A stretch of DNA of 64,000 nt, taken from assembly GCA_963740985.1 (NCBI GenBank), contig CAVUGJ010000002.1, positions 4,591,105 through 4,655,104 on the forward strand. Reading direction: 5' to 3'. The notes under the pieces were generated by a model. It saw nothing but the letters and a program-made list of their open reading frames with translations, was not told the origin of the DNA and ran no database searches. Below are positions 10,136-46,294 of the stretch, one piece after another. Source of the DNA: an uncultured Microthrixaceae bacterium (lineage in GTDB: Bacteria; Actinomycetota; Acidimicrobiia; Acidimicrobiales; Acidimicrobilacustridaceae). Each line of letters opens with the position of its first letter. Within the stretch, counting starts at the first letter, position 1. The translations under genes and the position numbers were made by a program.

Positions 10136-11725
10136 TCAGATCACGTAGCGGTCGGCCAGGGCCAGGTCCGCGTCGGCGAAGTTGCGCAGGGCCGGCTGGG
10201 TGGCCACTCGGGGGGTGGTGATCAGCCCGCGGAAGGTTCCGTCGTCCAGGCCTCGTGCCAGGTACTGGTCGATGGCCGACCACTGGACGAGCCACTTGTC
10301 CATGGCATCGTCGCCGCCGGCCTGGGCCGGGTCCGGGATGTCGGCCAGGATGCGGCCGAAGGCCCGCCGGTGCACGGCCAGGGCGTGGGTGCAGGTCACC
10401 GGTCCGCAGGTCTGGAGCCACTGGCATCCGTCGGCCAGGGGGAACTCCCGGGCGTGCACGCACGCGCCCAGGAAGCACAGGTCCCACTCCTGGTCGGCCA
10501 GCTCGCGGGTGGCGCCGGCCAGCACGTCCAGGGTGTCGTCCAGGAACACGGCGTCGTCCTCGAGGACCAACACGTTCTGGTAGCCGCGCCGGTCGGCCTC
10601 GGCGATCATGGCCCGCCACGACAGGGTGCAGCCCCGGTGGTGGTTGTCCGGGGTGGCCACCGCGGGGAAGCGCTCGACGCGCCAGGCGATGTCGAGCACC
10701 GCGTAGCGGTGCTGCGCGGCCTGCCAGCGGTCGGTGGCGTCGTCGAGGTTGAGGGCGAAGATGGCGTCGAAGAAGGAGAACGGGTTGGCCACCTGGCGAG
10801 CGGTCTGATCCAGGATGGCCTGGGGGTCGGCCTCCGGCAGGGCGCCCAGGTGCTGGCGGAAGTGGTCCTCCATGGGGGCGACGTCCCATCCCACCTCCCC
10901 CCAACCCAGGCGGTAGTTGCGGATGCGATCCTCCCAGGTGGGCCGGTAGGGCGGACCGCTGGGCCGGGTGAAGCGGTGAGCCCAGCGCACGTCGGGATGG
11001 CACAGCACCCGCCCGCCGCCCTGGCGGACCTTCTCGTGCAGGTACCCCTCCTCGCCGCCGAACCCTCGCAGTCGGGGATTGAGGCCGGGCCAGGCGTCGG
11101 TGCGGCAGGCGAAGAGCCCCAGTCCCTGCATCCCGATGTCGAAGGGCTCCACGCCGGGTTCGTCGATCCGGGGATCGGTGGCCCACTGCCCGTACATCCC
11201 TCCGCCCCAGGTGCCGGCGAAGTGGGTGCCCACCACGTGGCTCAGATCGTCGGAAAGCAACGGACCCTGGATCAGGTCGCGGCTGTCGGGGTGGCGGTCG
11301 AACCAGTCGAGGATGGCGGCCAGGCCGCCGGGGGCCACCAGCACGTGCGAGTCCACGCAGACCACCACGTCGGCGTCGGCCTGGCGGAAGATGAGGTCGC
11401 GGGCGGCGGTGGACCGGTACCCCCGGAAGGGGATGTAGCGCAGCCCGGGCACCCGCTGATCCAGTCCCTTGAGGTCGTGCGCGGCCTCGCCTTCGGGATG
11501 GTTGTCCAGGATCACGAAGCTGAGATCGTCGGCCACCTCGGGGTGGTACAGGCGGATGGCCTGCACCGTGAACCACACCCCGTCGAAGTCGTCGAAGGTG
11601 GCCATGCCCACACACAGGCGGCGATGGCCGACCGGTGGGGTGGCGTCGGGGATGACCCGGGTGGCCTCGTCGGCTTCGGCCAGCTTGCGGGTGAGCTCGC
11701 CGAGGAGCTGCTGAGCGTTGGACAC
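10136..11725 (-). CDS. Two-domain glycosyltransferase (N-terminal GT2-like, C-terminal GT25-like)
   Basis: N-terminal half: CVGMATFDDFDGVWFTVQAIRLYHP...FVILDNHPEG...VCVDSHVLV. C-terminal half: FDAIFALNLDDATDRW...HRGCTLSWRAMIAEA...VLVLEDDAVF (GT25-like pattern). Confidence 0.7.
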   Translation of the reverse strand: MSNAQQLLGELTRKLAEADEATRVIPDATPPVGHRRLCVGMATFDDFDGVWFTVQAIRLYHPEVADDLSFVILDNHPEGEAAHDLKGLDQRVPGLRYIPFRGYRSTAARDLIFRQADADVVVCVDSHVLVAPGGLAAILDWFDRHPDSRDLIQGPLLSDDLSHVVGTHFAGTWGGGMYGQWATDPRIDEPGVEPFDIGMQGLGLFACRTDAWPGLNPRLRGFGGEEGYLHEKVRQGGGRVLCHPDVRWAHRFTRPSGPPYRPTWEDRIRNYRLGWGEVGWDVAPMEDHFRQHLGALPEADPQAILDQTARQVANPFSFFDAIFALNLDDATDRWQAAQHRYAVLDIAWRVERFPAVATPDNHHRGCTLSWRAMIAEADRRGYQNVLVLEDDAVFLDDTLDVLAGATRELADQEWDLCFLGACVHAREFPLADGCQWLQTCGPVTCTHALAVHRRAFGRILADIPDPAQAGGDDAMDKWLVQWSAIDQYLARGLDDGTFRGLITTPRVATQPALRNFADADLALADRYVI

Positions 11726-11743
11726 GGGTGGTCGGTCGAGGCC

Positions 11744-12124
11744 CTAGAAGAGCCCGTTGCCGCCGCGGTAGGCGGCGGCGGCCGAGGCGTAGCGGGCATC
11801 GTCGGAGGCCACGAACTGCCCTTCGTCGTCCCACATCCCGTCCAGGGGGAGTAGGGGAGCCCCGGTCTGGTGGTCGAAGTCGTCGCCGTGGGCACCGGGG
11901 TCATCGCTGGGCCGCGTGAGCTCGATCGTGGGCCGCAGCCGGTCCCACCAGACGCCGTAGGGGAGGTGGCGGGCCCGGACCGTCACCGCGCCGAGGTGGT
12001 CGCGGGCGCTGGCCAGGGCCACGTAGGTGGTGAACGGGAACGGCTCGTCGGTCCGCTCGGTGCCCACCACCGCCACGCCCGCCATCTCGGCACGCCGTGC
12101 GTCCTGGCCCATGTCCCCTATCAT
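11744..12124 (-). CDS. Hypothetical protein (about 126 aa, no recognisable family)
   Basis: Very high GC3 on the minus strand (...PFPFTTYVALASARDHLGAVTVRARHLPYGVWWDRLRPTIELTR...GGNGLF*). Co-directional with the glycosyltransferase 18 bp downstream. Start is ATG 12124 or 12112. Confidence 0.55.
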   Translation of the reverse strand: MIGDMGQDARRAEMAGVAVVGTERTDEPFPFTTYVALASARDHLGAVTVRARHLPYGVWWDRLRPTIELTRPSDDPGAHGDDFDHQTGAPLLPLDGMWDDEGQFVASDDARYASAAAAYRGGNGLF

Positions 12125-12133
12125 GCCAGCCCC

Positions 12134-12403
12134 ATGGCCAGCTCCCCGACCGACCGACCGGTGCGCACCGATGGCCTCGAGATCAACGAGGTGGCCGATG
12201 GACTGGTGGTCTACCAGGCCGCGCCCGAGCGGGTGCACTACCTGAACAACACCGCCGCGGTCGTCTTCGAGCTGTGTGACGGCGCCCGCACCGTGCCCGA
12301 GATCGCCGATGCGGTGGGCGAGCTCTTCTCGCTGACGCGCGCCCCCACGGCCGAGGTCGAGGCCTGCCTGGTGGAGCTGGCGGCCAAGGGGGTCGTGCAA
12401 TAG
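12134..12403 (+). CDS. PqqD family protein (RiPP-recognition-element type peptide chaperone)
   Basis: MASSPTDRPVRTDGLEINEVADGLVVYQAAPERVHYLNNTAAVVFELCDGARTVPEIADAVGELF...EVEACLVELAAKGVV is a classic PqqD pattern (xLNxTAxxIWxLCDG). The part of track ORF 11870.. upstream of 12134 is antisense to the neighbouring gene. Confidence 0.8.
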   Translation: MASSPTDRPVRTDGLEINEVADGLVVYQAAPERVHYLNNTAAVVFELCDGARTVPEIADAVGELFSLTRAPTAEVEACLVELAAKGVVQ

Positions 12404-12414
12404 TCCGCTTCCGG

Positions 12415-13269
12415 TTGCTGTGGCACGAGATCGTGATCGACGTGGACGGGGCAGGCCCCGAGGTGGTCGATCTCGTGCGCTACCTGGTGTCGTCCGCCGA
12501 ACACCCGCTCGATGCCCTGGCCCCCATGCACTACCGCGTGCGTGCCGTCGACCACGGGTGGATGGTGGAGGAGGAGGGGGATCACCTCGAGACGCTGGAC
12601 GATCCCGAGGCGCTGCTCGACCTGCTCTATCGCCGGGTGCACCAGCGGGCCTTCGAGTTGGCGTCGCTGCGAGGCTGGGTACGGCTGCACGCGGCGGTGA
12701 TCGATTTGCGGCCGGACGCCGGGTCCGACCCGGTGCGGCTGGCGCTGGTCGCCCCTTCGGGGACGGGCAAGACCACGCTGGCCTGTCGCCTCCTGCTCGA
12801 CGGGCAGGAGGCGCCGGCCGACGAGAGCACCCTGGTGCGTGACGGCGTGGCGTTGCCCGTGGCTCGCCGGTTCCACCTCAAGCCCGGCCTGGAGGACGTG
12901 GTCACGGGACTGGCCGCCCACACGGTCGGCCTGCCCAGCCTGGCCGACGGGTCGGTCCGGGCGTTCGATCCCGCCGTGGCCGGATTCACCTGGGTGGTGC
13001 AGGAGCGTCCCGTCGATCACGTCGTCCTGGTGGAGCGCCACGCACCCGGGGCATCGGATTCGGTCGCCGCCATGCCCACCTGGCTGGAGCCGACCAGCGC
13101 GGTGGAGGCCATGCCCGTGCTGGTGGATCAGTCGTTCCCCCACCTGGAGCCCACCGGGGAGTTGCTGGCCCAGGTGGCCACCCTGCTGCGCCAGGCGCAG
13201 TGTTGGCGCCTCGGTTTGGGCTCGCTACCCGAGGCCAGCATCCTCCTACGGGATCTGGCCAGCCGCTAG
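12415..13269 (+). CDS. HPr kinase-related P-loop protein (HprK-related kinase)
   Basis: 284 aa with Walker A LVAPSGTGKTTLA in the C-terminal half. Size and context (PqqD upstream, nucleotidyltransferase downstream) match HprK-like kinases of RiPP-type clusters. Confidence 0.65.
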   Translation: MLWHEIVIDVDGAGPEVVDLVRYLVSSAEHPLDALAPMHYRVRAVDHGWMVEEEGDHLETLDDPEALLDLLYRRVHQRAFELASLRGWVRLHAAVIDLRPDAGSDPVRLALVAPSGTGKTTLACRLLLDGQEAPADESTLVRDGVALPVARRFHLKPGLEDVVTGLAAHTVGLPSLADGSVRAFDPAVAGFTWVVQERPVDHVVLVERHAPGASDSVAAMPTWLEPTSAVEAMPVLVDQSFPHLEPTGELLAQVATLLRQAQCWRLGLGSLPEASILLRDLASR

Positions 13270-13357
13270 CATCTCTGGCCAATGTGTCTGAGGCGTTCGC
13301 GCCCAGGCGAGCTGATCTGTTCGGACAGCAAGATTCGTCGAAAGAGGTTGGGTGCAC

Positions 13358-13650
13358 ATGAGCGAGCAGTCGGAAACCGATCCCCTGGGGGGAGACCGCC
13401 GAGCTTTTTGAAGAAGATGGCCGTGGCGGGCTTCGCGGTTCCCGCGGTGGCGACCTTCTCGACCGTCGGCATCGAGGCCGCGTTCGCCCAGACGGCCAAC
13501 GCCTCGGGTACGACCACGACCACGGCGGCCAGCCCGACCACCACCGCCGCCTCCACCACCACGGCCGCGCCGACCACGACGACGACCACCACGGTCCCGC
13601 CGACCACGACGACGACCACGACCACCACCACCCCCGAAATTCCGCGGTGA
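13358..13650 (+). CDS. Small poly-Thr/Pro protein with a twin-arginine signal (about 97 aa once a -1 shift at the T5 run 13405-13409 is applied)
   Basis: ATG 13358 (GAGG 10 nt upstream) gives MSEQSETDPLGGDRRAF, then TGA. Shifting -1 in the TTTTT run gives DRRAFLKKMAVAGFAVPAVATFSTVGIEAAFA|QTANASG... (Tat consensus, h-region, AxA site). The predicted mature part is 53 aa with 29 Thr. Without the shift the ORF starts at ATG 13417. Confidence 0.6.
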
Positions 13651-13687
13651 GGTCGGGCGAGCGCCGAGCTCGCCGTCGACCGGGTTC

Positions 13688-14896
13688 GTGAGCCGCCCGC
13701 CGTCCCAAGCCGTCACCGCGGACGAACGTCAGCTCCTCGCCGCCGCCTTGCACCCAGTCGGGTCGGGCGGCGGCACCGCGTCCGGCCCCGCCTGGCATCG
13801 CCGGGCCTGGGACGGTCCGGCCGGCGCGGGCGCACTGCACCTGGCCGCAGCCCACGATCTGTTGCCGGCCCTGTGGCGGGCCGAGGTGGACCGGGGCACC
13901 TGGACCGAGTTGCCCCCCGACGCCTTCGACGTGGTGCGGACCCGCTTCGCCGGTGGCACCACCCAGCCCGCCCTGCTGGCGCAGCAGGCCCATGCCGCCA
14001 ACCGGGTCCGGGTGGCCGACCTGCTCGACCAGGGCTCGGCAGTGCTCGACGCTCTGGCTGAGGCAGGCATCGATGCGGTGCCGCTGAAGGGGCTGCACGC
14101 GCTCCTTGCCGGCTGGTGGGCCGATCCGGCCAGCCGAGTCATGCGCGACCTCGACGTCCTGGTGGGCGAGACCCAGGCCAACGCGGCCGAGGCGGTGCTG
14201 TCGGGGTTGGGCTACGAGCCGCTGGCTACGGGGCACGACGACTACGGCGACCACGAACGACCGGCTCTGCACCTGCCCCGACGCGACGGCTCCGTCGAGC
14301 TGCACACCGCGCTGGTGGTGTCGCGCTGGCAAGCGGTCCTGCCCGCGTCCGGCGTGCTGGCGGCGGGAGCGCCCCTGTCCACCACCGACGCGGTGATCCA
14401 CTCGATCGCCCACGCCCAACTCCACGACGAGGCGCACCTGCTGGCCCGGCTGCCGTGGCGGGCGCTGCACGAGCTGGCGGTGGTGGCCCGGGGCCCCAGC
14501 GGGCCGGAGGTCGACTGGGATCGGGTACGCCGCCAGTTCACCGCCGTGGGGGCGGTCGCCGCGCTCGACGCCCATCTGTGGCTGGCCATCGACCTCTTCG
14601 CAGCGGAGGTGCCCCGTCCCGCGGGCACGTGGCGCCCCCGTCTGCACCAGTGGTGGAGCGAGACCCTCATGGCCCACCCATCGTGGGCACCGACCTACGA
14701 ATCGGCAGTGTTCGCGCCTCGTGCGCTCTCGGCGCCGCGGATGCGCCAGTTGTACGGCGAGGGCCCGTTGTGGGTGCTGCGGGGCCGGCACGTGACCACG
14801 GCGATGACGACGGCGGTGGCCGGGCGAATCGGCCGGGCCTCAGCCGGCCGAGCTCCAGGCCCTGGTCGACCTGAGCGACATGACCCGCTGAACTAG
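13688..14896 (+). CDS. Nucleotidyltransferase family protein (uncharacterised NTP_transf_5 type)
   Basis: 402 aa. ...GIDAVPLKGLHALLAGWWADPASRVMRDLDVLV...AVLSGLGYEP... matches the DxD/'DLDLLV' core of the PF14907-type family, from memory. Confidence 0.6.
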   Translation: MSRPPSQAVTADERQLLAAALHPVGSGGGTASGPAWHRRAWDGPAGAGALHLAAAHDLLPALWRAEVDRGTWTELPPDAFDVVRTRFAGGTTQPALLAQQAHAANRVRVADLLDQGSAVLDALAEAGIDAVPLKGLHALLAGWWADPASRVMRDLDVLVGETQANAAEAVLSGLGYEPLATGHDDYGDHERPALHLPRRDGSVELHTALVVSRWQAVLPASGVLAAGAPLSTTDAVIHSIAHAQLHDEAHLLARLPWRALHELAVVARGPSGPEVDWDRVRRQFTAVGAVAALDAHLWLAIDLFAAEVPRPAGTWRPRLHQWWSETLMAHPSWAPTYESAVFAPRALSAPRMRQLYGEGPLWVLRGRHVTTAMTTAVAGRIGRASAGRAPGPGRPERHDPLN

Positions 14897-36422: not shown

Positions 36423-36634
36423 TCAGACCTTCGCCGCACCGGCGGAGAGCGGTCGGTCCCTGCGCACCGCGGGGCTCTCCGCCAGCCCCGCGGGCGCTCC
36501 CTCCGAAGAGAGGGATCTGCCGACTGGCCGTTCCCGGCTCCAGGGGGCGGCTCCGGGAACGGGGCCAATCGGCTACCAGGCCCACCACGGTCGCTGGTAT
36601 GCCAGACAGAGTCAGCCGCGGGTGGCCGGATACG

Positions 36635-36660
36635 GATTTCTGGTGATTTCCCAAGATTTC
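36635..36660 (+). promoter_or_regulatory. Three helically phased GATTTC direct repeats upstream of the ECF sigma gene
   Basis: GATTTC occurs at 36635, 36645 and 36655, exactly 10 bp apart, in an otherwise GC-rich 300-bp intergenic region 70-95 bp upstream of ATG 36731. Confidence 0.35.
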
Positions 36661-36730
36661 CCGCGGGCCTGTATCCACCCGGCCCGAGGTTGCTCTGTTT
36701 CGCGGTCCCCACATCTCGACAGGCCTCCGT

Positions 36731-37324
36731 ATGGACATCGACACCGCCCCTAGACTCCCGGCCATGCGGCCCGACTTCTCTGAGCTCGTGGACCGGGCCC
36801 GCGGCGGTGACGGCGAGGCCTGGCGCCAGATCGTGGACGGGTTGCAAGGGGTGGTGTGGCGAGCGGTCAGCGGCTTCGGGCTCTCCTCGGAGGACCGCAA
36901 GGACGTGTTCGCGGCCGCCTTCTTCCGGCTCTTCGAGCGACTCGACACCATCCGCGAACCGCACAAGCTGCCGGGCTGGATCGCCACCACCACCCGCAAC
37001 GAGGCCCTCACCCTGGTTCGGGCCCGTCAGCGCACCGAGCCCCGTGACGCGATCGGCGACGATGACGCCGACGCCGACGCCGTCGAGCAGAGCCTGTTGG
37101 ACACCGAGCTGGTGGATGCGCTGCGGCGAGCGCTGAATCGCCTGGCGCCCGCGTGTCGCCAGCTGCTGGAACTGCTCACCGCCGATCCGGCCCTGTCCTA
37201 CGACGAGATCGCGGTGGTCCTGGACATGCCCCGGGGCAGCATCGGCCCGTCCCGTCAGCGCTGCCTCGACCGGCTGCGCCACAGTGCGGAGCTGAGCGCC
37301 TTCGTGGAAGGGACGGTTCGATGA
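36731..37324 (+). CDS. ECF-type sigma-70 family RNA polymerase sigma factor
   Basis: Region 2: ...AWRQIVDGLQGVVWRAVSGFGLSSEDRKDVFAAAFFRLFERL...KLPGWIATTTRNEAL. Region 4: ...LAPACRQLLELLTADPALSYDEIAVVLDMPRGSIGPSRQRCLDRLR. The start may instead be ATG 36764. Confidence 0.85.
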   Translation: MDIDTAPRLPAMRPDFSELVDRARGGDGEAWRQIVDGLQGVVWRAVSGFGLSSEDRKDVFAAAFFRLFERLDTIREPHKLPGWIATTTRNEALTLVRARQRTEPRDAIGDDDADADAVEQSLLDTELVDALRRALNRLAPACRQLLELLTADPALSYDEIAVVLDMPRGSIGPSRQRCLDRLRHSAELSAFVEGTVR

Positions 37325-37776
37325 GCGAGCCCGGCGACCTGCACGACGACGACGCCCTTCTGGCCGAGCTGGGGCGCGCCCTGGATCGCCTCGATCCGGT
37401 GCCCCCCGACGCGGTCGAGGCCGCCATCGCCGCCGGCGGGCTGGGCCGGATCAACGACGAGCTGGCCACGCTGGTGGTCGACTCCCTGCTCGATGCCGGT
37501 CCGCTCGTCCGCCACGACGGTCCGGCGCCGCGACAGCTCAGCTTCACCACCGCCCACCTCAGCCTGGAGATCGAGCTGGCGGCCGATGGTGAGACCCTCC
37601 TGGGTGCGGTCTCGCCCGCTTCGGTGGTCGAGGTCGAGAGCGAGGGACCAGGTGCCGTGGCCGGGACCCGCAGCGACGAGTTGGGACGGTTCCGGCTGGC
37701 CCTGGGTCAGGGATGGTGCCGTCTGCGCGTTCGGGCGTCCGGGGTCTCGCTGGTGACCCCGGTCATCGTGCGCTGA
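37321..37776 (+). CDS. Sigma-factor-associated hypothetical protein (151 aa, no TM; candidate soluble anti-sigma/partner)
   Basis: ATG overlaps the sigma stop (ATGA). The N-terminus is acidic (MSEPGDLHDDDALLAELGRALDRLDPVPPDAVEAA). The C-terminal half is beta-rich and ends ...DELGRFRLALGQGWCRLRVRASGVSLVTPVIV. Confidence 0.6.
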   Translation: MSEPGDLHDDDALLAELGRALDRLDPVPPDAVEAAIAAGGLGRINDELATLVVDSLLDAGPLVRHDGPAPRQLSFTTAHLSLEIELAADGETLLGAVSPASVVEVESEGPGAVAGTRSDELGRFRLALGQGWCRLRVRASGVSLVTPVIVR

Positions 37777-40615
37777 GGGCTGCGTCATCGCCGCCCACGC
37801 ACACGAAGGTGGCGGCCCCCAACCCCGGTTCGTCCACCGCCGCCCGAGCCAGGGCCGCGGCCGGCGCCCGGCCGGCGGCCAGCTGGTGGTGCAGCGCCAC
37901 CATGAGGGAGCGGGTGGCATCGTCAGGGACGGCGGTGACGGGCGCGATGACGTCGCGCACCCCCATGCCGATGAGCGTGGCCGCGGTGCCCAGCAGCTCG
38001 TCGCCGGATCGGACGGCCACGGTGGCGGCCTCACAGGCAGACAACACGACCAGGCGGGGGGCCTGACGCACCCGCTCGAGGTCGTAGACGGTGAGCGGAC
38101 CGTCGGCCAGTCGCACCGACGAGAAGAGCGGGCTGTCGGCCCGGAAGGTGCCGTGGGCCGCCAGGTGCACCACCTCGGCTCGTTCGATGGCGCCCAGCAC
38201 GGCCTCGACGGTGGCCGCCCGACCGACCAGCACCTCGGCGCCGGGGTAGAGGTGGGCCAGGCGACGCACCTCGGCCCGGGCCCCGGGCAGGTCGGGTCCC
38301 GCGATCAGCGCGGTCCGGCTCCCGCCCGAGCCAGCGGTGGCCGAAGCAACCGTCGCGGCCATCCACACCGCCGCGCTGGGGGCCACGGTGGTGGGCCGCC
38401 CGGCCAAGCTGGGCAGCGCCGACCAGGCCACCCCGTACAGCGAGCCGGTGGGCACCACGATGACGCCGGGTACCTCCTGGGCGGACCCCACCGACGCCAG
38501 GAGCGGGGCCACCAACAGCTCGTCCAGCCGGGCCGCGCTCTGCGAGACGGCCGATGGGACCGGATCGACCCGACGTCGGCGGCGGGCCCCCGACGACCGG
38601 TTCGACGGCACCGCCAGCCATCGGCGCAGGGCGAAGAGCAGATAGTCCCGCTCGCGCTCCACCTCCACAGCCGGACCCAAGGGGTGATGGGCCAGGCGAC
38701 CCCGGTGCAGCGTGATGGCGTGCAGCTCACCGTCGAGCTCGACATACTCGATGAGGGCCCGGGGGCCCACCGTCCGTCGCAGTCGAGGCAGGTCCAATCG
38801 GGCCGAGCGGTGCTGATCCGCGGAACCGTCGGTGCCGAGGTCGCGTGCCTGGCGGGTCCGGTGCCGGATGGTGTCCTCCAGGGCGCGGGCCTGCCGGCGC
38901 AACGCCACGGTCTCGTCGTCGGCCGGGTCGTCCGGATCGCCGGTCTGGCCGATGGTCTCGCGCAACTCGGTGTCGACCTGGCGCAGGGCGGTGAGGTCGG
39001 CGGCCAGCCGGGCGTCGTCGGGTGGGCGCACCCGGGGCCGGGTCAGGGCCCGGGCCCGTCCCCGTTCGGCCCACTCCAGCAGCGGCGCCGGCCGCCCGTC
39101 GGCCAGGGCCAGACGGGTGCCCAGGCGGGTCAGCTCGCTGCCGTGGCCCGCCGCGCCGGTGCGCAGCTCGGTGGCGCCCAGCGTGGCGCGATAGCGGTCG
39201 ATGACGCCCAGACCGGCCACCAACGCCCGTCGGGCCGCGGTGGGGTCACCGTCGGCCAGGTGGAGCAGCGCGGCGGCGTGCCAGGCCTGGGCCCGCTGCT
39301 CGGCCGGTCCACGGCGGCGGGCGGCGGCGGCGTCGGTCAGCTCGCGCCGGGCAACGGCGGGACGTCCCAGGGCCAGTGCCAGGCGGCCCACGAAGGTACG
39401 CACGTGGACCGCCTCGATGGGCCAGCCCTGGCGTTCGAGCTCCAGGGCCAGGTCCTGGCTGCGACCCAAGAGGTCCCCGGGCGGGCGATCGTCGTCCTGG
39501 GAGGCCAGCACCTCGGCCTGGATGCCGACGTAGCGAGCCTGGGCGGCCCAGGGTCGACGTTGGGTGAGGTCGAACTGGTCGGCCGCCACCTGCGCCTCAC
39601 GGGCCGCTTCGCCGTACTGGCCGTGGGCCAACAGGGCTCTCGCGGCCAGCAGGCGGGTCTCGTTCAGATGGCTCTGGTCGCCGCTGGCCGCCACCGCGGC
39701 CAGGGCGGCTCGGGCCGTCGACACCGCCTCGTTGGCCAGGCCGGCCAGCAGCAGGACGTCGCAGCGGTCGGCGAGCAGGACGGCGTTGCCCAGCTGGGCG
39801 TCTTCCAGGCGGGCGTAGGCCGCCTCGGCCCGCTCCAGGGCGGCCAGGGCGGCGGGCAGGTCGCCCCGACGTCCCTGGGCGAAGGCGATGTTGTGCGCGG
39901 CCATGGCCGCCAGCGACGGCAGATCCCGGGCCTGGGCGATGCGTTCGCTCTGGGCCAGGTCCTCGAGCGCCCCGGCCGGGTCGCCCTGATAAGCCCGCAG
40001 CGCGCCCCGGTTCAGCCGCAGGCGGGCGATCGAGTACTGGTCGTCGACCTGGGTCAACAGTCGCAGCGCCCGTCGCAGGATGGTCTGGGCCTCGGTGAGG
40101 TGGCCGGTCCGCTGGCGCAGGAAGCCGTAGAGCATCTCCACCTGTCCCCGCGTGGAAGGCGGGGTCAGATGGCGGGCCTGGGCCAGCTCCCGTTCGGCCC
40201 CGTCGGTGTCGCCCAGGCCGAGCAGGGACACCGACAAGGAGGCCCGGGCCAGCGCCAGGGTCTCGATCCGGGCCTGGTCGGCCTGGCCTTCCGGTGGATC
40301 GGCCGGGGCCACGCTGGCCTGGATGGCTTCCTGGTAGCTGGCCACCGCCTCGGCGCTGGCGCGCAGCTCGTGGCTGGTCAGGCCCACCACCCAGGCGGCG
40401 CGTGCGGCCACGACGGGGTCGGTGGTGGCCTGCCGGAGGCGTTTGGTCTCGTCCCGGGCCCGGGCGGGATCGCGGTGGCGGCGTTCGGCCAACTCGGCCA
40501 GCTGAGTCAGCTGAATCCGTTGACGGGTCCGCGCCGCCTGTCCCGCCGTCCCGGCCACGGGACGGATCGTAAGCCAGTCCGGGCGTTCACGCCGACGGCA
40601 CCGCCCGACCGTCAC
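37763..40615 (-). CDS. TPR-repeat CHAT domain protein (caspase-like protease), about 950 aa
   Basis: Long helical-repeat region followed by a C-terminal CHAT domain: ...AEVVHLAAHGTF (catalytic His)...PRLVVLSACEAA (catalytic Cys). Start taken as GTG 40615 (alternative GTG 40558). Track ORF residues upstream of that are antisense to the PVYAT repeat. Confidence 0.8.
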   Translation of the reverse strand: MTVGRCRRRERPDWLTIRPVAGTAGQAARTRQRIQLTQLAELAERRHRDPARARDETKRLRQATTDPVVAARAAWVVGLTSHELRASAEAVASYQEAIQASVAPADPPEGQADQARIETLALARASLSVSLLGLGDTDGAERELAQARHLTPPSTRGQVEMLYGFLRQRTGHLTEAQTILRRALRLLTQVDDQYSIARLRLNRGALRAYQGDPAGALEDLAQSERIAQARDLPSLAAMAAHNIAFAQGRRGDLPAALAALERAEAAYARLEDAQLGNAVLLADRCDVLLLAGLANEAVSTARAALAAVAASGDQSHLNETRLLAARALLAHGQYGEAAREAQVAADQFDLTQRRPWAAQARYVGIQAEVLASQDDDRPPGDLLGRSQDLALELERQGWPIEAVHVRTFVGRLALALGRPAVARRELTDAAAARRRGPAEQRAQAWHAAALLHLADGDPTAARRALVAGLGVIDRYRATLGATELRTGAAGHGSELTRLGTRLALADGRPAPLLEWAERGRARALTRPRVRPPDDARLAADLTALRQVDTELRETIGQTGDPDDPADDETVALRRQARALEDTIRHRTRQARDLGTDGSADQHRSARLDLPRLRRTVGPRALIEYVELDGELHAITLHRGRLAHHPLGPAVEVERERDYLLFALRRWLAVPSNRSSGARRRRRVDPVPSAVSQSAARLDELLVAPLLASVGSAQEVPGVIVVPTGSLYGVAWSALPSLAGRPTTVAPSAAVWMAATVASATAGSGGSRTALIAGPDLPGARAEVRRLAHLYPGAEVLVGRAATVEAVLGAIERAEVVHLAAHGTFRADSPLFSSVRLADGPLTVYDLERVRQAPRLVVLSACEAATVAVRSGDELLGTAATLIGMGVRDVIAPVTAVPDDATRSLMVALHHQLAAGRAPAAALARAAVDEPGLGAATFVCVGGDDAALSAR

Positions 40616-40650
40616 CCCACCAACTCGAGTCCGACCAAGGAGGCAACACC

Positions 40651-42036
40651 GTGAGCAACATCGACGATGGGCAGGGTGGCCGGGAGCGGCCGACCGGACC
40701 GTGGACCGATCGGGTCCGGTTCGGGTCCCGGGCGGGGAGCGATCCGTTCGCCTACCGCCCGGGCCAGGTGGTGGCCGGGGCCGGGGACGCCTGTCGGGCC
40801 GCGGTGACGGAGCTGGCCGCGGAGGCGTCGGTGACCGACCTGGGTGCGAGCTTGCACGTCTCGGGTGTGGACGATGCCCTGGGGCTGGTCGATGACCTGC
40901 AGGCGCGGGGTCACCGGGCGCATCCCAACCACGTGTACTTCGCCCACGACGTGGGCGGGTGCGAGTGTTGCCCGCCCCATCCGGCCTCGGGATCGGGTCC
41001 CGGCGCCAACCCGGTGTACGCCACGCCGGTGTACGCGACGCCGGTGTATGCGACGCCGGTGTATGCGACGCCGGTGTATGCGACGCCGGTGTACGCGACG
41101 CCGGTGTATGCGACGCCTGTGTATGCGACGCCGGTGTACGCGACACCTGTGTACGCCACCGTGCCGGTGCACAGCAGCGCTCGCCCAGTGCCGCCGGGGA
41201 CGCCCATGGCCGAGCTCGTCCGGGACTATCACCGTGGCGACGACCGGGCTTCAGCCAACGTGATCGTGCTCGACACGGGGCTGGCTTCCCACCCGTTCCG
41301 GCCGGCGGCTTTGGCCGATCCCTCGCCCATCCATGCCGCTTCCCCGGCGGACGAGGATCGGCCCGACGAGAACGACGACCACCTGCTCGATCCCGCCGCC
41401 GGGCACGGCACCTTCGTGGCCGGGGTGGTCGATCAGGTGGCCCCGGGCTGCGCCATCACCATCCACCGCGTGCTCTCGACCTTCGGCGACGGCGACGAGG
41501 TGGCCATCGCCGCCTGCCTCGACGCCATCGAGCCCGAGGATCCGGCCCGCACCATCCTGAACCTGTCCTTCGGCGGCTACGTCCTCGACCACCCCCACCT
41601 GCTGGCCCGGGCCGTCCGGCGCCTCCAGCGGCTGGGTGTGGTGGTGGTGGCCTCGGCTGGCAACGACGCTACGTGCCGGCCCACCTATCCGGCGGCGCTG
41701 GACGGAGTGGTGTCGGTGGGCGCGGTGGGCCCGGGGGGTCCGGCGCCGTTCACCAACTACGGCCCGTGGGTCCGGGCCTGCGCCCCCGGGGTCGATCTGC
41801 TCAGCGCCTTCTTCCGCGGCGTCGACGTCAGCGAGGCCGTCCCCGGCGTGCCGGGAGACTTCGATGGCTGGGCGGTGTGGAGCGGGACCTCGTTCGCCGC
41901 GCCGGTGGTGGTGGGCGCGCTGGCCGCCACCATGCACGCCGTGGGCTGTTCGGCGGCCGAGGCCGTCAACCGGGTCATCGACGCCCCGGCCCTGATGCGC
42001 ATCCCCTATCTGGGAACGGTGGTGAACCTGGCCTGA
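40651..42036 (+). CDS. S8 family serine peptidase (subtilase) without a signal peptide, with an N-terminal domain, a Cys-rich motif and a 10x PVYAT repeat
   Basis: AAGGAGG lies 7 nt upstream of GTG 40651. Catalytic triad contexts are VIVLDTGL (Asp), AAGHGTFVAG (His) and WSGTSFAAP (Ser). GCECCPPHP and the repeats precede the catalytic domain. No N-terminal hydrophobic segment. Confidence 0.85.
   Translation: MSNIDDGQGGRERPTGPWTDRVRFGSRAGSDPFAYRPGQVVAGAGDACRAAVTELAAEASVTDLGASLHVSGVDDALGLVDDLQARGHRAHPNHVYFAHDVGGCECCPPHPASGSGPGANPVYATPVYATPVYATPVYATPVYATPVYATPVYATPVYATPVYATPVYATVPVHSSARPVPPGTPMAELVRDYHRGDDRASANVIVLDTGLASHPFRPAALADPSPIHAASPADEDRPDENDDHLLDPAAGHGTFVAGVVDQVAPGCAITIHRVLSTFGDGDEVAIAACLDAIEPEDPARTILNLSFGGYVLDHPHLLARAVRRLQRLGVVVVASAGNDATCRPTYPAALDGVVSVGAVGPGGPAPFTNYGPWVRACAPGVDLLSAFFRGVDVSEAVPGVPGDFDGWAVWSGTSFAAPVVVGALAATMHAVGCSAAEAVNRVIDAPALMRIPYLGTVVNLA
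41011..41160 (+). repeat. 10 tandem copies of a 15-bp unit (CCGGTGTAYGCGACG) encoding PVYAT, inside the S8 peptidase gene
   Basis: Ten head-to-tail units were read directly. All differences between units are synonymous third-position changes (ccg/cct, tac/tat, gcc/gcg, acg/aca/acc). Confidence 0.95.
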
Positions 42037-42058: not shown

Positions 42059-42940
42059 GTGCGGCCCTACGCTGGCCGGGTGGACCCTCGTCCCATCGGC
42101 ATGTTCGACAGCGGCTTCGGCGGGCTCACGGTGGCCCGGGCCGTCATCGACCTGCTCCCGGACCAGTCGCTGGTGTACGTGGGCGACACCGACCGCTACC
42201 CCTACGGTCCGCGGCCACTGGCCGAGGTGCGCGAGTACGCCCTGCAGATCGGTACCTGGCTGGTGCGCGAGCACGAGGTGAAGGTGCTGGTGGTGGCGTG
42301 CAACACCGCGGCCGCAGCCGCGCTCGACGAGCTGGGCGACCAGCTCGGGGTGCCGGTGATCGGCGTGATCGAACCGGGCGTGCGGGCCATGTTGTCGGCC
42401 ACGACCAGCGGCCATGTCGGGGTGATCGGCACCGTCGGGACCATCTCGTCGGGGGCGTACCAGCGGGTGGTGGCCACCATGTCCGACGAGGTCAAGCTCA
42501 CCTGCGCGGCGTGTCCCGGGTTCGTCGAGTTCGTGGAGCGGGGTGACTTCGACGGGGATCAGGTCCACGTGCTGGCCGAACGCCTGCTGGCCCCGATGCA
42601 CGACGCCGGCATCGACACGTTGCTGCTGGGGTGCACCCACTACCCCTACCTGGCCCGCACCATCGCCGACGTGATGGGTCGCGACGTGGTCCTGGTGTCG
42701 TCGGCGGACGAAACTGCCTTCGCCCTGGCCGCCGCCCTGGGCCGGTCCCGACCCGCGTCGAGCCCGGGCGCCGCGGGCGGCGGGCCGCGGCACCGGTGGT
42801 TCTCCTCCGGCGACCTGGGATCGTTCCAGTCGCTGGGTCAACGACTGCTCGGCCCCGAGCTCGACCAGGCCGAAGCCCTGGTCTGGGCCGATCCGACCGC
42901 CAGTTCGCGGCCCCCGCTCGACGGCCCGGGGCGCCCATGA
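42059..42940 (+). CDS. murI: Glutamate racemase
   Basis: PIGMFDSGFGGLTVARAV...YVGDTDRYPYG...VVACNTAAAAAL...LLGCTHYP, with both catalytic Cys motifs. Confidence 0.95.
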   Translation: MRPYAGRVDPRPIGMFDSGFGGLTVARAVIDLLPDQSLVYVGDTDRYPYGPRPLAEVREYALQIGTWLVREHEVKVLVVACNTAAAAALDELGDQLGVPVIGVIEPGVRAMLSATTSGHVGVIGTVGTISSGAYQRVVATMSDEVKLTCAACPGFVEFVERGDFDGDQVHVLAERLLAPMHDAGIDTLLLGCTHYPYLARTIADVMGRDVVLVSSADETAFALAAALGRSRPASSPGAAGGGPRHRWFSSGDLGSFQSLGQRLLGPELDQAEALVWADPTASSRPPLDGPGRP

Positions 42941-43728
42941 GCCTCGAGATCACCGTCCTCGGGTGTTCCGGGAGCTATCCGGGTCCCGGGGACGCGGCCA
43001 GCGGCTACCTGCTGCGCGGCGGCGGGGCCACGGTGGTCATGGACCTGGGTCCGGGCACGCTGGCCAACCTGCAGCGACACGTGCCGCTCTCGGCCATCGA
43101 CGCGGTCGTCCTGACCCATCGCCACCCGGACCACTGGACCGACCTGGCCGGTCTGCACACCGCGGTCAAGTACGGCTCGGATCGTGAGGGGCTCCAGGTG
43201 TGGGGAACGCCCGAGGGTCGCCAGATGGCCGAGGAGCTGACCGGCGGACTGGCCCCGACGCTGGACTGGCGCGACATCGGCGCCGGCTCGCTGCTGGTGG
43301 TGGACGGCCTGTGCTTCACCTTCGGGCCCACCGAGCACTACGTCCCCTGCTTCGCGGTGCGGGTCGACGGCCCGGCCGGCGAGTTGCTGGTGTATTCGGC
43401 CGACACCGGCCCGGGCTGGCCCATCACCGCGCTCACCTCGGCCTCGCCGGTGTTCGCCGGGCGGCCCGAGGCGTCCCGGCCCATCGACCTGCTCCTGTGT
43501 GAGTCGACCCACCTGGCGTCGCGCGAAGGCGAGGGAGTGCTGCACCTGAGCGGGCGCCAGGCCGGCGTCCTGGCGCGCTCGGTGGGTGCGCGACGATTGA
43601 TGCTCACCCACCTGTGGCCCACCGACGATCCCGAAGATCACCGGGCCGAGGCCGTCGACGCGTTCGGTGCCCCTGTCGAGCTCGCCGTCACCAACCAGAC
43701 CTACGACGTCGGGAGACCGCCACCGTGA
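42937..43728 (+). CDS. MBL-fold metallo-hydrolase
   Basis: ATG overlaps the murI stop (ATGA). [16 protein letters not shown]...[14 protein letters not shown] carries the HxHxDH motif. Confidence 0.85.
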
Positions 43729-46195: not shown

Positions 46196-46246
46196 CGAAA
46201 TCCGTGGAGAAACCCACACCCAGGGGGTGTTTCTCCACGGATTTCG
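46196..46246. repeat. Palindromic hairpin element, copy 2 (arms identical to copy 1)
   Basis: CGAAATCCGTGGAGAAA (46196-46212) and TTTCTCCACGGATTTCG (46230-46246). Same orientation as copy 1. The loop differs by a few bases (CCCACACCCAGGGGGTG). Confidence 0.9.
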
Positions 46247-46294
46247 GGAGGGGTCGGGAGGGGGCGGATTTCGGGAGGGGTCGGGAGGGGGCGG
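46241..46294. repeat. Exact 27-bp tandem duplication abutting hairpin copy 2
   Basis: ATTTCGGGAGGGGTCGGGAGGGGGCGG occurs twice head-to-tail (46241-46267 and 46268-46294). Copy 1 has a single diverged version (ATTTCGCTGAGGGTCGGGGA). Confidence 0.9.

Follow-up and report, generated by a model that had tools for sequence, protein, structure and literature searches.

A cytoplasmic protease pair linked to an ECF54-type sigma factor and its small non-catalytic partner in an acidimicrobial genome

We describe a four-gene module in a 64-kb stretch of DNA (64,000 nucleotides of contig CAVUGJ010000002.1, from an uncultured Microthrixaceae bacterium; hereafter the window), which encodes a sigma factor of the extracytoplasmic function (ECF) type, a 151-residue partner protein, a TPR-CHAT cysteine protease and a subtilase of family S8. 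Judged by its gene context, the module very probably belongs to the ECF54 type. ECF54 is an actinobacterial group of sigma factors without a clear regulator (Casas-Pastor et al. 2021, PMC7826278), the members of which have carboxypeptidase, subtilase and CHAT proteins as neighbours, and for which proteolytic control has been proposed (PMC8999054, section 3.3, where the context is credited to Casas-Pastor et al. 2021 and Huang et al. 2015, J Bacteriol 197:2517). No experiment on any ECF54 member was found in the literature searched. The module is therefore already catalogued as ECF54 context and is not a new discovery, the present locus being a new member in an Acidimicrobiia genome. What is new here is that the "carboxypeptidase" is recast as a likely anti-sigma factor, together with a zymogen-like S8 protease, a promoter motif and a candidate RNA output. 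The overall model that we put forward, in which the partner is a soluble anti-sigma factor that is removed by the CHAT and/or S8 protease to free the sigma factor, has in our judgement an even chance of being correct. The genes of the module, with the main features of their products, are the following.

36731-37324, plus strand: ECF sigma factor gene; 197 residues, sigma2 and sigma4 only; ECF54-type by context
37321-37776, plus strand: soluble partner gene, candidate anti-sigma factor; 151 residues, two helices and a CarboxypepD_reg-like beta-sandwich
37763-40615, minus strand: TPR-CHAT cysteine protease gene; CHAT and TPR_12; start probably GTG 40558
37835-38539, minus strand: CHAT catalytic domain; His821 (38153-38155) and Cys861 (38033-38035)
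40651-42036, plus strand: gene of the apparent pro-subtilase, cytoplasmic; 461 residues, Peptidase_S8 at 3.2e-21
40930-40983, plus strand: junction motif HVYFAH-x-C-x-CCPPHP of the S8 protein; residues 94-111, end of the N-terminal domain
41011-41160, plus strand: 10 x PVYAT, a 15-nt tandem repeat in the S8 gene; residues 121-170, lineage-variable disordered linker

The sigma factor and its non-catalytic partner

The first gene of the module encodes a minimal ECF sigma factor. Pfam returns Sigma70_r2 at 2.7e-8 together with matches to Sigma70_r4 and r4_2, the TIGR02937 sigma70-ECF model scores 64 bits against a cut-off of 42.9, and the closest solved relatives are RpoE and SigE. The 197 residues hold sigma2 and sigma4 only, with no fused extension; translation could also begin at M12 (36764). 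The stop codon overlaps the start of the partner gene in an ATGA at 37321-37324, and such stop/start overlaps of the sigma-partner pair are also present in several other loci. A sequence-only reading of this stretch had described the four genes, the ATGA and a 14-bp convergent overlap between the partner and protease genes, and the open reading frame (ORF) listing and direct reading of the letters confirm these coordinates.

The only family match of the partner is a sub-threshold one to CarboxypepD_reg, covering residues 95-146 (26 bits, cut-off 32), and its N-terminal 67 residues have no Pfam match. The AlphaFold2 model of the protein, built on a 24-sequence alignment, has a predicted local distance difference test (pLDDT) score of 76. 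It combines two N-terminal helices of low confidence (10-23 and 29-57) with an 8-strand beta-sandwich of high confidence (71-145), and a disordered hinge or linker at approximately 58-60 separates the two parts. Conserved residues define a signature in the helices, DDxLLxxL ... DPVP ... (D/E)ELAxLxxDS, and another in the sandwich, DxLGRFR ... GxxR; in the same 24-sequence alignment, Arg64 of the hinge is almost invariant. The partner contains no catalytic motif and is a non-catalytic protein, not a peptidase. It follows that what the ECF54 literature calls a "carboxypeptidase" is not a peptidase but a small non-catalytic protein and the best candidate for an anti-sigma factor.

To place the partner fold, its model was compared with the PDB using Foldseek. 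No match was obtained at E <= 1e-3, with only generic beta-sandwiches at E 9e-3 or worse, and neither Csx30 nor an anti-sigma factor is present among the 50 best matches. A partner profile run against PDB sequences gave nothing below E 0.3. The four-helix class I anti-sigma domain (ASD, zf-HC2) is not recognisable in the partner, which has two predicted helices only; there is no HxxxCxxC-type Cys/His motif and no match to an anti-sigma family. Thus, the sequence and structure searches against Csx30 and anti-sigma folds that the sequence-only reading had called for matched neither. The sigma gene also has no canonical anti-sigma gene beside it, of the zf-HC2/RskA type or membrane-anchored, as judged by Pfam, NCBIfam and the search for transmembrane segments.

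The partner family is large. A word-indexed search finds only 23 relatives, and an exhaustive profile search yields 3254 representatives at 50% identity with E <= 1e-3, of which 1858 are at <= 1e-10. Nearly all of the best 150 relatives are approximately 150 residues long. In one homologue, P0038, two tandem copies of the N-terminal helical module precede the beta-sandwich; since the helical module is merely duplicated, P0038 was rejected as a Rosetta-stone fusion. P0173 was rejected as well, as it seems to have arisen by reading through a frameshift out of sigma region 4.

Conservation of the four-gene unit

We used the partner as a probe, and scans of genomes and metagenomes with 15 closer sequences gave 33 loci, to which exact-protein look-ups added L001 and L002. 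The presence of the other genes was established by tblastn with the window proteins, and the ORFs of 17 loci were clustered all against all. The closest loci are metagenome-assembled genomes (MAGs) of Microthrixaceae; others come from Mycobacteriales, Saccharothrix, Plantactinospora and Jatrophihabitantaceae. The sigma gene lies directly upstream of the partner gene in every locus that has upstream sequence (33/33), and both CHAT and S8 are within 5 kb in 12 of the 17 fully flanked loci.

Three gene orders are seen. In the order of the window, sigma and partner are followed by CHAT on the minus and S8 on the plus strand. In the Saccharothrix loci L010 and L011, the pair is followed by S8(-) and CHAT(+), and in Plantactinospora (L015), the order is S8(+), sigma, partner, CHAT(+). 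The linkage has thus been kept through rearrangement in Acidimicrobiia, Mycobacteriales, Pseudonocardiales and Micromonosporales, which argues for a functional link; the four genes are indeed syntenic in relatives across Actinomycetota, the point on which the sequence-only reading had made its case depend. By contrast, a chance juxtaposition of a sigma-partner pair and a CHAT-S8 pair would fit the fact that the two pairs are separable: L014, L016 and L018 have no CHAT or S8 within 10 kb, and a distance of 44 kb lies between the pairs in L004/L019. Given that co-location is maintained across three gene orders in distant actinobacterial orders, and was independently reported as ECF54 context (PMC8999054), we regard chance as extremely improbable.

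In the separated case, L004 (approximately 600.5-621.0 kb) and L019 (approximately 555.5-576.4 kb) lie on one contig of a Microthrixaceae MAG and hold the two halves of the module, cysteine synthase-MFS-sigma-partner and CHAT-S8-murI, approximately 44 kb apart. They apparently represent the arrangement of the window, split by an insertion that carries a Dyp-peroxidase gene and other genes. In two MAG assemblies (L003 10001-13312 and L019 6844-9914), the CHAT, partner and S8 genes are broken into several frames, which may reflect assembly indels or pseudogenes.

In Saccharothrix, L009-L011 carry protease genes beside the sigma-partner pair and L014, L016 and L018 do not, so that paralogous or reduced versions exist within the genus. 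The pair without CHAT/S8 in the latter three loci (10440-13770) adjoins a gene for a large secreted protein; that this is a GH92-like mannosidase is a guess from its N-terminal sequence.

All-against-all clustering revealed no fifth conserved family among the ORFs of the 17 loci. The module therefore consists of four genes and has no linked effector, in line with the earlier remark that no effector gene is visible at the locus. A ROK-type sugar kinase, identified by eye, was considered as a fifth gene and rejected as coincidental, as it recurs at varying distances. Casas-Pastor et al. also mention a 4Fe-4S protein near ECF54 genes (PMC7826278); no such conserved family emerged from the general ORF clustering of the 17 loci, which included no dedicated Fe-S scan.

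The TPR-CHAT protease and the S8 subtilase

The third gene runs towards the partner gene, with its stop at 37763 producing the 14-bp convergent overlap. Its product matches Pfam CHAT at 1.2e-35 over residues 693-927 and also TPR_12, and the N-terminal region of approximately 690 residues is rich in TPR. The motifs HLAAHG and LSACE are present as first described, and their catalytic residues H821 and C861 occupy invariant alignment columns in nine orthologues, within a well-conserved core, H(L/I/V)AAHG...FRxDxPLFS...LSAC(E/D). The reported length of approximately 950 residues holds for the ORF from GTG 40615 (950 residues), which leaves a 35-bp gap to S8. Because of the L001 gene call and the nine-sequence alignment, the start at GTG 40558 is more likely, giving 931 residues and a gap of 92 bp; the divergent arrangement of CHAT and S8 stands, and the 35-bp distance is doubtful.

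As a single sequence, the CHAT protein has no match in the PDB. A profile of its orthologues strongly matches many TPR proteins and, over profile positions 745-833 only, weakly matches (E ~5e-4) the "CHAT domain protein" chains of 8d9f, 7x8a and 7y83. We take these chains to be Csx29 of Craspase complexes. As judged from the sequences, the relationship between the window protein and Csx29 is one of common architecture and distant protease-fold homology, not orthology.

The S8 gene has a strong AAGGAGG ribosome-binding site. The residues of the catalytic triad, D208 (41272-41274), H252 (41404-41406) and S414 (41890-41892), are invariant among 61 homologues, and the triad, the GCECCPP motif and the ten PVYAT units are all where the sequence-only reading had seen them. 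Its concern that the catalytic residues of the two proteases might not sit at conserved positions is settled for both enzymes. In the AlphaFold2 model (pLDDT 82, predicted template modelling score (pTM) 0.83), the catalytic domain has a canonical subtilisin fold, matching subtilisins at E 6e-15. It is preceded by an N-terminal domain, residues 23-96, with beta-alpha-beta-beta-alpha-beta topology and pLDDT >90, and by a disordered stretch with pLDDT <50 (residues 115-172) that covers the repeats. At the end of the N-terminal domain stands a conserved PNHV(F/Y)FAH, followed by C-x-CCPPHP (GCECCPP at residue 103). Within this junction, 16 sequences show no variation at H94, F97, P109, H110 and P111 and almost none at H99, C104 and C107, and the pattern also holds across 61 sequences. 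The Cys/His junction motif might be a processing site or a metal or redox switch.

The linker varies much more. Its repeat is PVYAT, PVYAS, PMYAS or PVYGT, or there is no repeat at all, and copy number differs even among close relatives. The pentapeptide repeat is missing from the Mycobacteriales and Saccharothrix orthologues, with variants in L001, L003 and L005, and it accounts for a weak Extensin_1 match in many Acidimicrobiales S8 homologues. Since lineages differ in both the unit and the number of copies, the region is a flexible linker and not a recognition element.

From its model, the S8 protein looks like a cytoplasmic pro-subtilase, i.e., a zymogen with an I9-like prodomain. In common with the I9-propeptide subtilases, it is predicted to have a beta-alpha-beta-beta-alpha-beta domain, which the model places with confidence relative to the subtilisin fold; this putative prodomain ends in the conserved PNHV(F/Y). 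Unlike them, it has no signal peptide and no Inhibitor_I9 sequence match, and a disordered repeat linker of approximately 70 residues plus the C-x-CCPPHP motif separates prodomain and catalytic domain. A Kyte-Doolittle scan of all four proteins found no signal-peptide-like or transmembrane stretch, bearing out the earlier statement that S8 lacks a signal peptide; the scan exceeds 1.6 at a single peak, which corresponds to the buried helix that follows the catalytic Ser of S8. As predicted from these profiles, all four components are cytoplasmic and soluble.

A promoter motif and a divergent structured RNA

The motif GTATC-N17-CTCT (usually CCTCTgtt) emerged from an alignment of the sequences that precede the sigma genes. 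In 10 loci, which represent several actinobacterial lineages, it lies upstream of the sigma gene with a constant spacer of 17 nt; the L007 variant has an 18-nt spacer, and the motif is also present in the metagenome loci L020, L025 and L033. The following features of the window belong to this region.

36671-36696, plus strand: promoter of the sigma-partner operon, putatively autoregulatory; GTATC-N17-CTCT
36608-36633, minus strand: divergent promoter copy; GTATC-N17-CTCT, ECF-type
36635-36660, plus strand: GATTTC x3 with 10-bp spacing, between the two divergent -35 elements
36425-36607, minus strand: candidate sigma-dependent structured RNA (5' leader or small RNA), downstream of the divergent promoter

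The two promoter sites are the only exact matches to GTATC-N17-CTCT in the window, and both have a position weight matrix score of 23.3, the next best site scoring 13.6. The plus-strand site ends 34 nt before the sigma ATG and, by its sequence and position, is a putative example of the autoregulatory promoter expected for an ECF sigma factor. The divergent pair recurs in L001, L003, L004, L020 and L025, and L023 has a minus-strand copy. The GATTTC units at 36635, 36645 and 36655 make up three of the seven copies that the window contains, and L001 and L003 have similar repeats; they might serve as a binding site for a regulator or as an UP-like element.

No ORF of at least 20 residues starts downstream of the divergent promoter. 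The RNA of 36425-36607 instead folds strongly, at -112.1 kcal/mol for the minus strand (z -5.0) and -102.5 for the plus strand (z -3.2). Conservation in 7 loci, which belong to two clades, extends over the first ~95 nt, with compensatory double changes in 5 base pairs; Rfam offers no family for it, with a chance-level match only. In the window, the RNA runs toward the 3' end of the cysteine synthase gene, while its counterpart in L004 is the leader of a gene encoding MFS_1 and cNMP_binding domains. From these sequence features, we consider the hairpin-rich divergent RNA of approximately 180 nt a candidate sigma-dependent small RNA or leader.

In two loci of Mycobacteriales type, a gene on the minus strand (L006, 8009-9253; L013, 8056-9273) is faced by a weaker divergent motif, GGTATC-N17-CTCA. 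The family scan, made on L006 only, identifies the L006 product as a RicinB_lectin_2 protein, and the L013 gene product has a similar N-terminus. The divergent targets of the sigma factor thus seem, from sequence, to differ by lineage.

A model for sigma factor release, and its rivals

In the mechanism that we propose, the partner would sequester the sigma factor, its poorly ordered N-terminal helices holding sigma and the beta-sandwich serving as a handle. A cytoplasmic cue, sensed via the long TPR array, would activate CHAT, which would then cut the partner, probably in the disordered linker near the almost invariant Arg64. CHAT may also cut the linker or the prodomain of the S8 zymogen, and S8 would then complete the degradation of the partner. 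The freed sigma factor would amplify its own operon and, in this lineage, fire the divergent promoter ahead of the structured RNA.

Strict one-to-one adjacency, the start/stop overlap and the putative autoregulatory promoter together make up a classic sigma/anti-sigma operon with positive feedback, which points to the partner as the anti-sigma factor. In the model, the combination of low-confidence helices and a folded sandwich would fit a small soluble anti-sigma factor that becomes ordered on binding. That the partner is a sigma-binding inhibitor is, on balance, slightly favoured; that one or both of the linked proteases relieve this inhibition is a more tentative proposal, which we hold a little less probable than its opposite.

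Several observations weigh against the proposed mechanism. For the partner, no match to Csx30 or to a known anti-sigma domain was obtained. The assignment of the S8 prodomain rests only on the predicted topology and the PNHV(F/Y) motif, the N-terminal domain having no match to Inhibitor_I9 in Pfam or to solved propeptides in a profile search of the PDB. In 5 of the 17 fully flanked loci (L004, L014, L016, L017 and L018), there is no adjacent CHAT/S8 pair, and the proteases are therefore not obligatory in cis. Finally, L005 has a full-score copy of the promoter motif (13062-13087) in its 56-bp CHAT-S8 gap, directly before the ribosome-binding site of S8, and in that lineage S8 is, from the sequence, probably under the control of the sigma factor.

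The L005 promoter is also the best argument for a different role of the proteases, namely as outputs: CHAT and S8 would belong to the regulon of an ordinary sigma-partner pair and act, for example, in remodelling or cell death during stress or differentiation. Such a reading agrees with the warning of Casas-Pastor et al. that neighbours of ECF genes may be targets and not regulators (PMC7826278). However, neither CHAT nor S8 is preceded by GTATC-N17-CTCT in the window, and the same holds for L001, L003, L006-L008 and L012; the second promoter site of the window faces away from the proteases. Because the proteases mostly lack a sigma-type promoter, we favour a place for them upstream of the sigma factor and outside its regulon, and we judge the output role to be unlikely.

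Alternatively, as the wording of the literature has it, the proteases could degrade the sigma factor itself and so keep its level low; the partner would then be an adaptor or protector and not an inhibitor. The gene linkage would be the same as under our model, and there is no canonical anti-sigma domain beside the sigma gene. That proposal, however, counted the CarboxypepD_reg protein as a peptidase, whereas the protein found here is non-catalytic and has 151 residues. In addition, strict one-to-one adjacency with a start/stop overlap is the signature of a sigma/anti-sigma pair, and the sigma-partner pair also occurs without adjacent proteases. We consider direct degradation of sigma improbable, to about the same degree as the output role. 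A partner that holds the sigma factor and is removed by proteolysis remains the most economical model.

Relation to ECF54 and to other protease-controlled sigma factors

The module shares with ECF54 a minimal sigma2-sigma4 ECF factor, the lack of a canonical anti-sigma factor, an actinobacterial host, and the CarboxypepD_reg-like, Peptidase_S8 and CHAT neighbours, all three of which are present in the window. It differs in its host, which is of the Acidimicrobiia/Microthrixaceae type, and in its CarboxypepD_reg protein, which is small and non-catalytic here and is regarded as a peptidase in the literature.

In type III-E CRISPR systems, Csx29 cleaves Csx30, and Csx30 inhibits CASP-sigma (PMC10028731), so that the background on which the sequence-only reading had built its comparison with Craspase is correct. 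The comparison itself survives in part: logic and parts list are alike, and homology is not, given that the partner has no match to Csx30 and that CHAT and Csx29 meet only at E ~5e-4 in the catalytic core. As in the protease arm of Craspase (PMC10028731), there is a TPR-CHAT protease; CASP-sigma is positively autoregulated there, as the putative promoter would have it here; and the position of the sigma-binding Csx30 beside an ECF-like sigma gene is, by analogy, that of the partner. Unlike in Craspase, there is no Cas7-11, crRNA (CRISPR RNA), CRISPR array (array scan of the 64 kb) or Csx31, the 151-residue partner is unrelated to Csx30 in sequence and fold, and an S8 protease is present that is absent there; target RNA bound by Cas7-11 cannot be the signal here. 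The 64 kb contain no spaced direct-repeat family, and no Cas-like family occurs among the conserved neighbours, confirming that the locus has no CRISPR component. The resemblance to Craspase is one of analogous logic and not of membership.

A second precedent is CalpL-CalpT-CalpS, in which a soluble Lon-SAVED protease is reported to cleave a soluble anti-sigma factor and to free an ECF-like sigma factor (10.1101/2024.05.08.593097). By analogy, it would offer the same soluble triad of protease, anti-sigma and ECF sigma as our model; the protease there is a Lon-SAVED protein activated by cyclic oligoadenylate, and there is no SAVED or CARF domain in the module. For the CHAT-to-S8 step, which is here pure inference, the type III-B SAVED-CHAT protease that activates the PCaspase zymogen (10.1101/2023.06.23.546230) may serve as an analogous case of CHAT acting on a second protease zymogen, with the differences that the second protease is caspase-like and the trigger is cyclic oligoadenylate. 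Membrane anti-sigma factors are removed by successive proteases in the case of RseA (DegS/RseP/ClpXP) and RsiW, and the sigma operon is autoregulated (PMC10028731); by contrast, the components of the present module are all predicted to be cytoplasmic and soluble, and the protease families are different.

Combining these precedents, the module could be a counterpart of Craspase and CalpL that works independently of a guide RNA: a two-tier cascade of CHAT and pro-subtilase that would cleave a new class of soluble anti-sigma factor, thereby releasing an ECF54 sigma factor with a structured RNA or a transporter leader as output. In this full form we think the proposal is rather doubtful.

A defence role and the genomic surroundings

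The sequence-only reading had also raised an abortive-infection role, and a CRISPR-free antiphage system, either Craspase-like or a gasdermin-type protease module, can be envisaged because conflict systems include CHAT and S8 proteases that have repeat sensors (PMC12642450, PMC8195603). PADLOC-DB 2.0 gives weak matches, to a generic subtilase model (2.9e-12), to BovA (5e-4) and to IetS. However, these are generic or weak matches of single proteins that define no system, and nothing is matched by sigma or partner. There is also no effector or fifth conserved gene in the clustering of the 17 loci, relatives are not found on viral contigs, and the window has no CRISPR array. Moreover, several related genomes have the module at the same place, between cysteine synthase and murI, which indicates vertical inheritance and not a mobile island. 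A defence function therefore finds no backing in these searches, and we consider it quite unlikely, more so than either of the alternative roles for the proteases discussed above.

The placement of the module between cysM and murI, both of which had been named from the sequence alone, was recovered in family searches: to the left is a cysteine synthase of the CysK/CysM family, and to the right is glutamate racemase (murI), with an MBL-fold gene, RNase PH and RdgB beyond it. This position is stable in several Microthrixaceae genomes. Protease-associated MBL effectors have been described (PMC12642450), and the MBL-fold gene (42937-43728), which has a sub-threshold match to a cyclic-nucleotide phosphodiesterase model, was considered as such an effector. 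It was rejected, being one of the housekeeping run after murI; this run recurs in L001 and L019, and the MBL gene does not travel with S8 in other taxa. Further along the window, at 46238-46291, there is a perfect tandem duplication with a 27-nt unit, CGGATTTCGGGAGGGGTCGGGAGGGGG.

Significance

For the most part, our analysis re-identifies a catalogued context, and its value lies in a well-defined experimental target and not in surprise. GTATC-N17-CTCT provides a direct handle on the regulon, and in the divergent structured RNA there is a concrete candidate for an output. If the partner is indeed an anti-sigma factor that the linked CHAT and S8 proteases remove, the module would represent a new, wholly cytoplasmic route of sigma factor activation for a large actinobacterial family, with approximately 3250 partner clusters at 50% identity, and ECF54 would gain its missing regulator. 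The protease/anti-sigma/sigma triad of type III CRISPR systems would then be a widespread housekeeping signalling device of actinobacteria that has been co-opted, and the module would provide a non-CRISPR reference for the way in which sigma factors came under the control of Csx29-type proteases.

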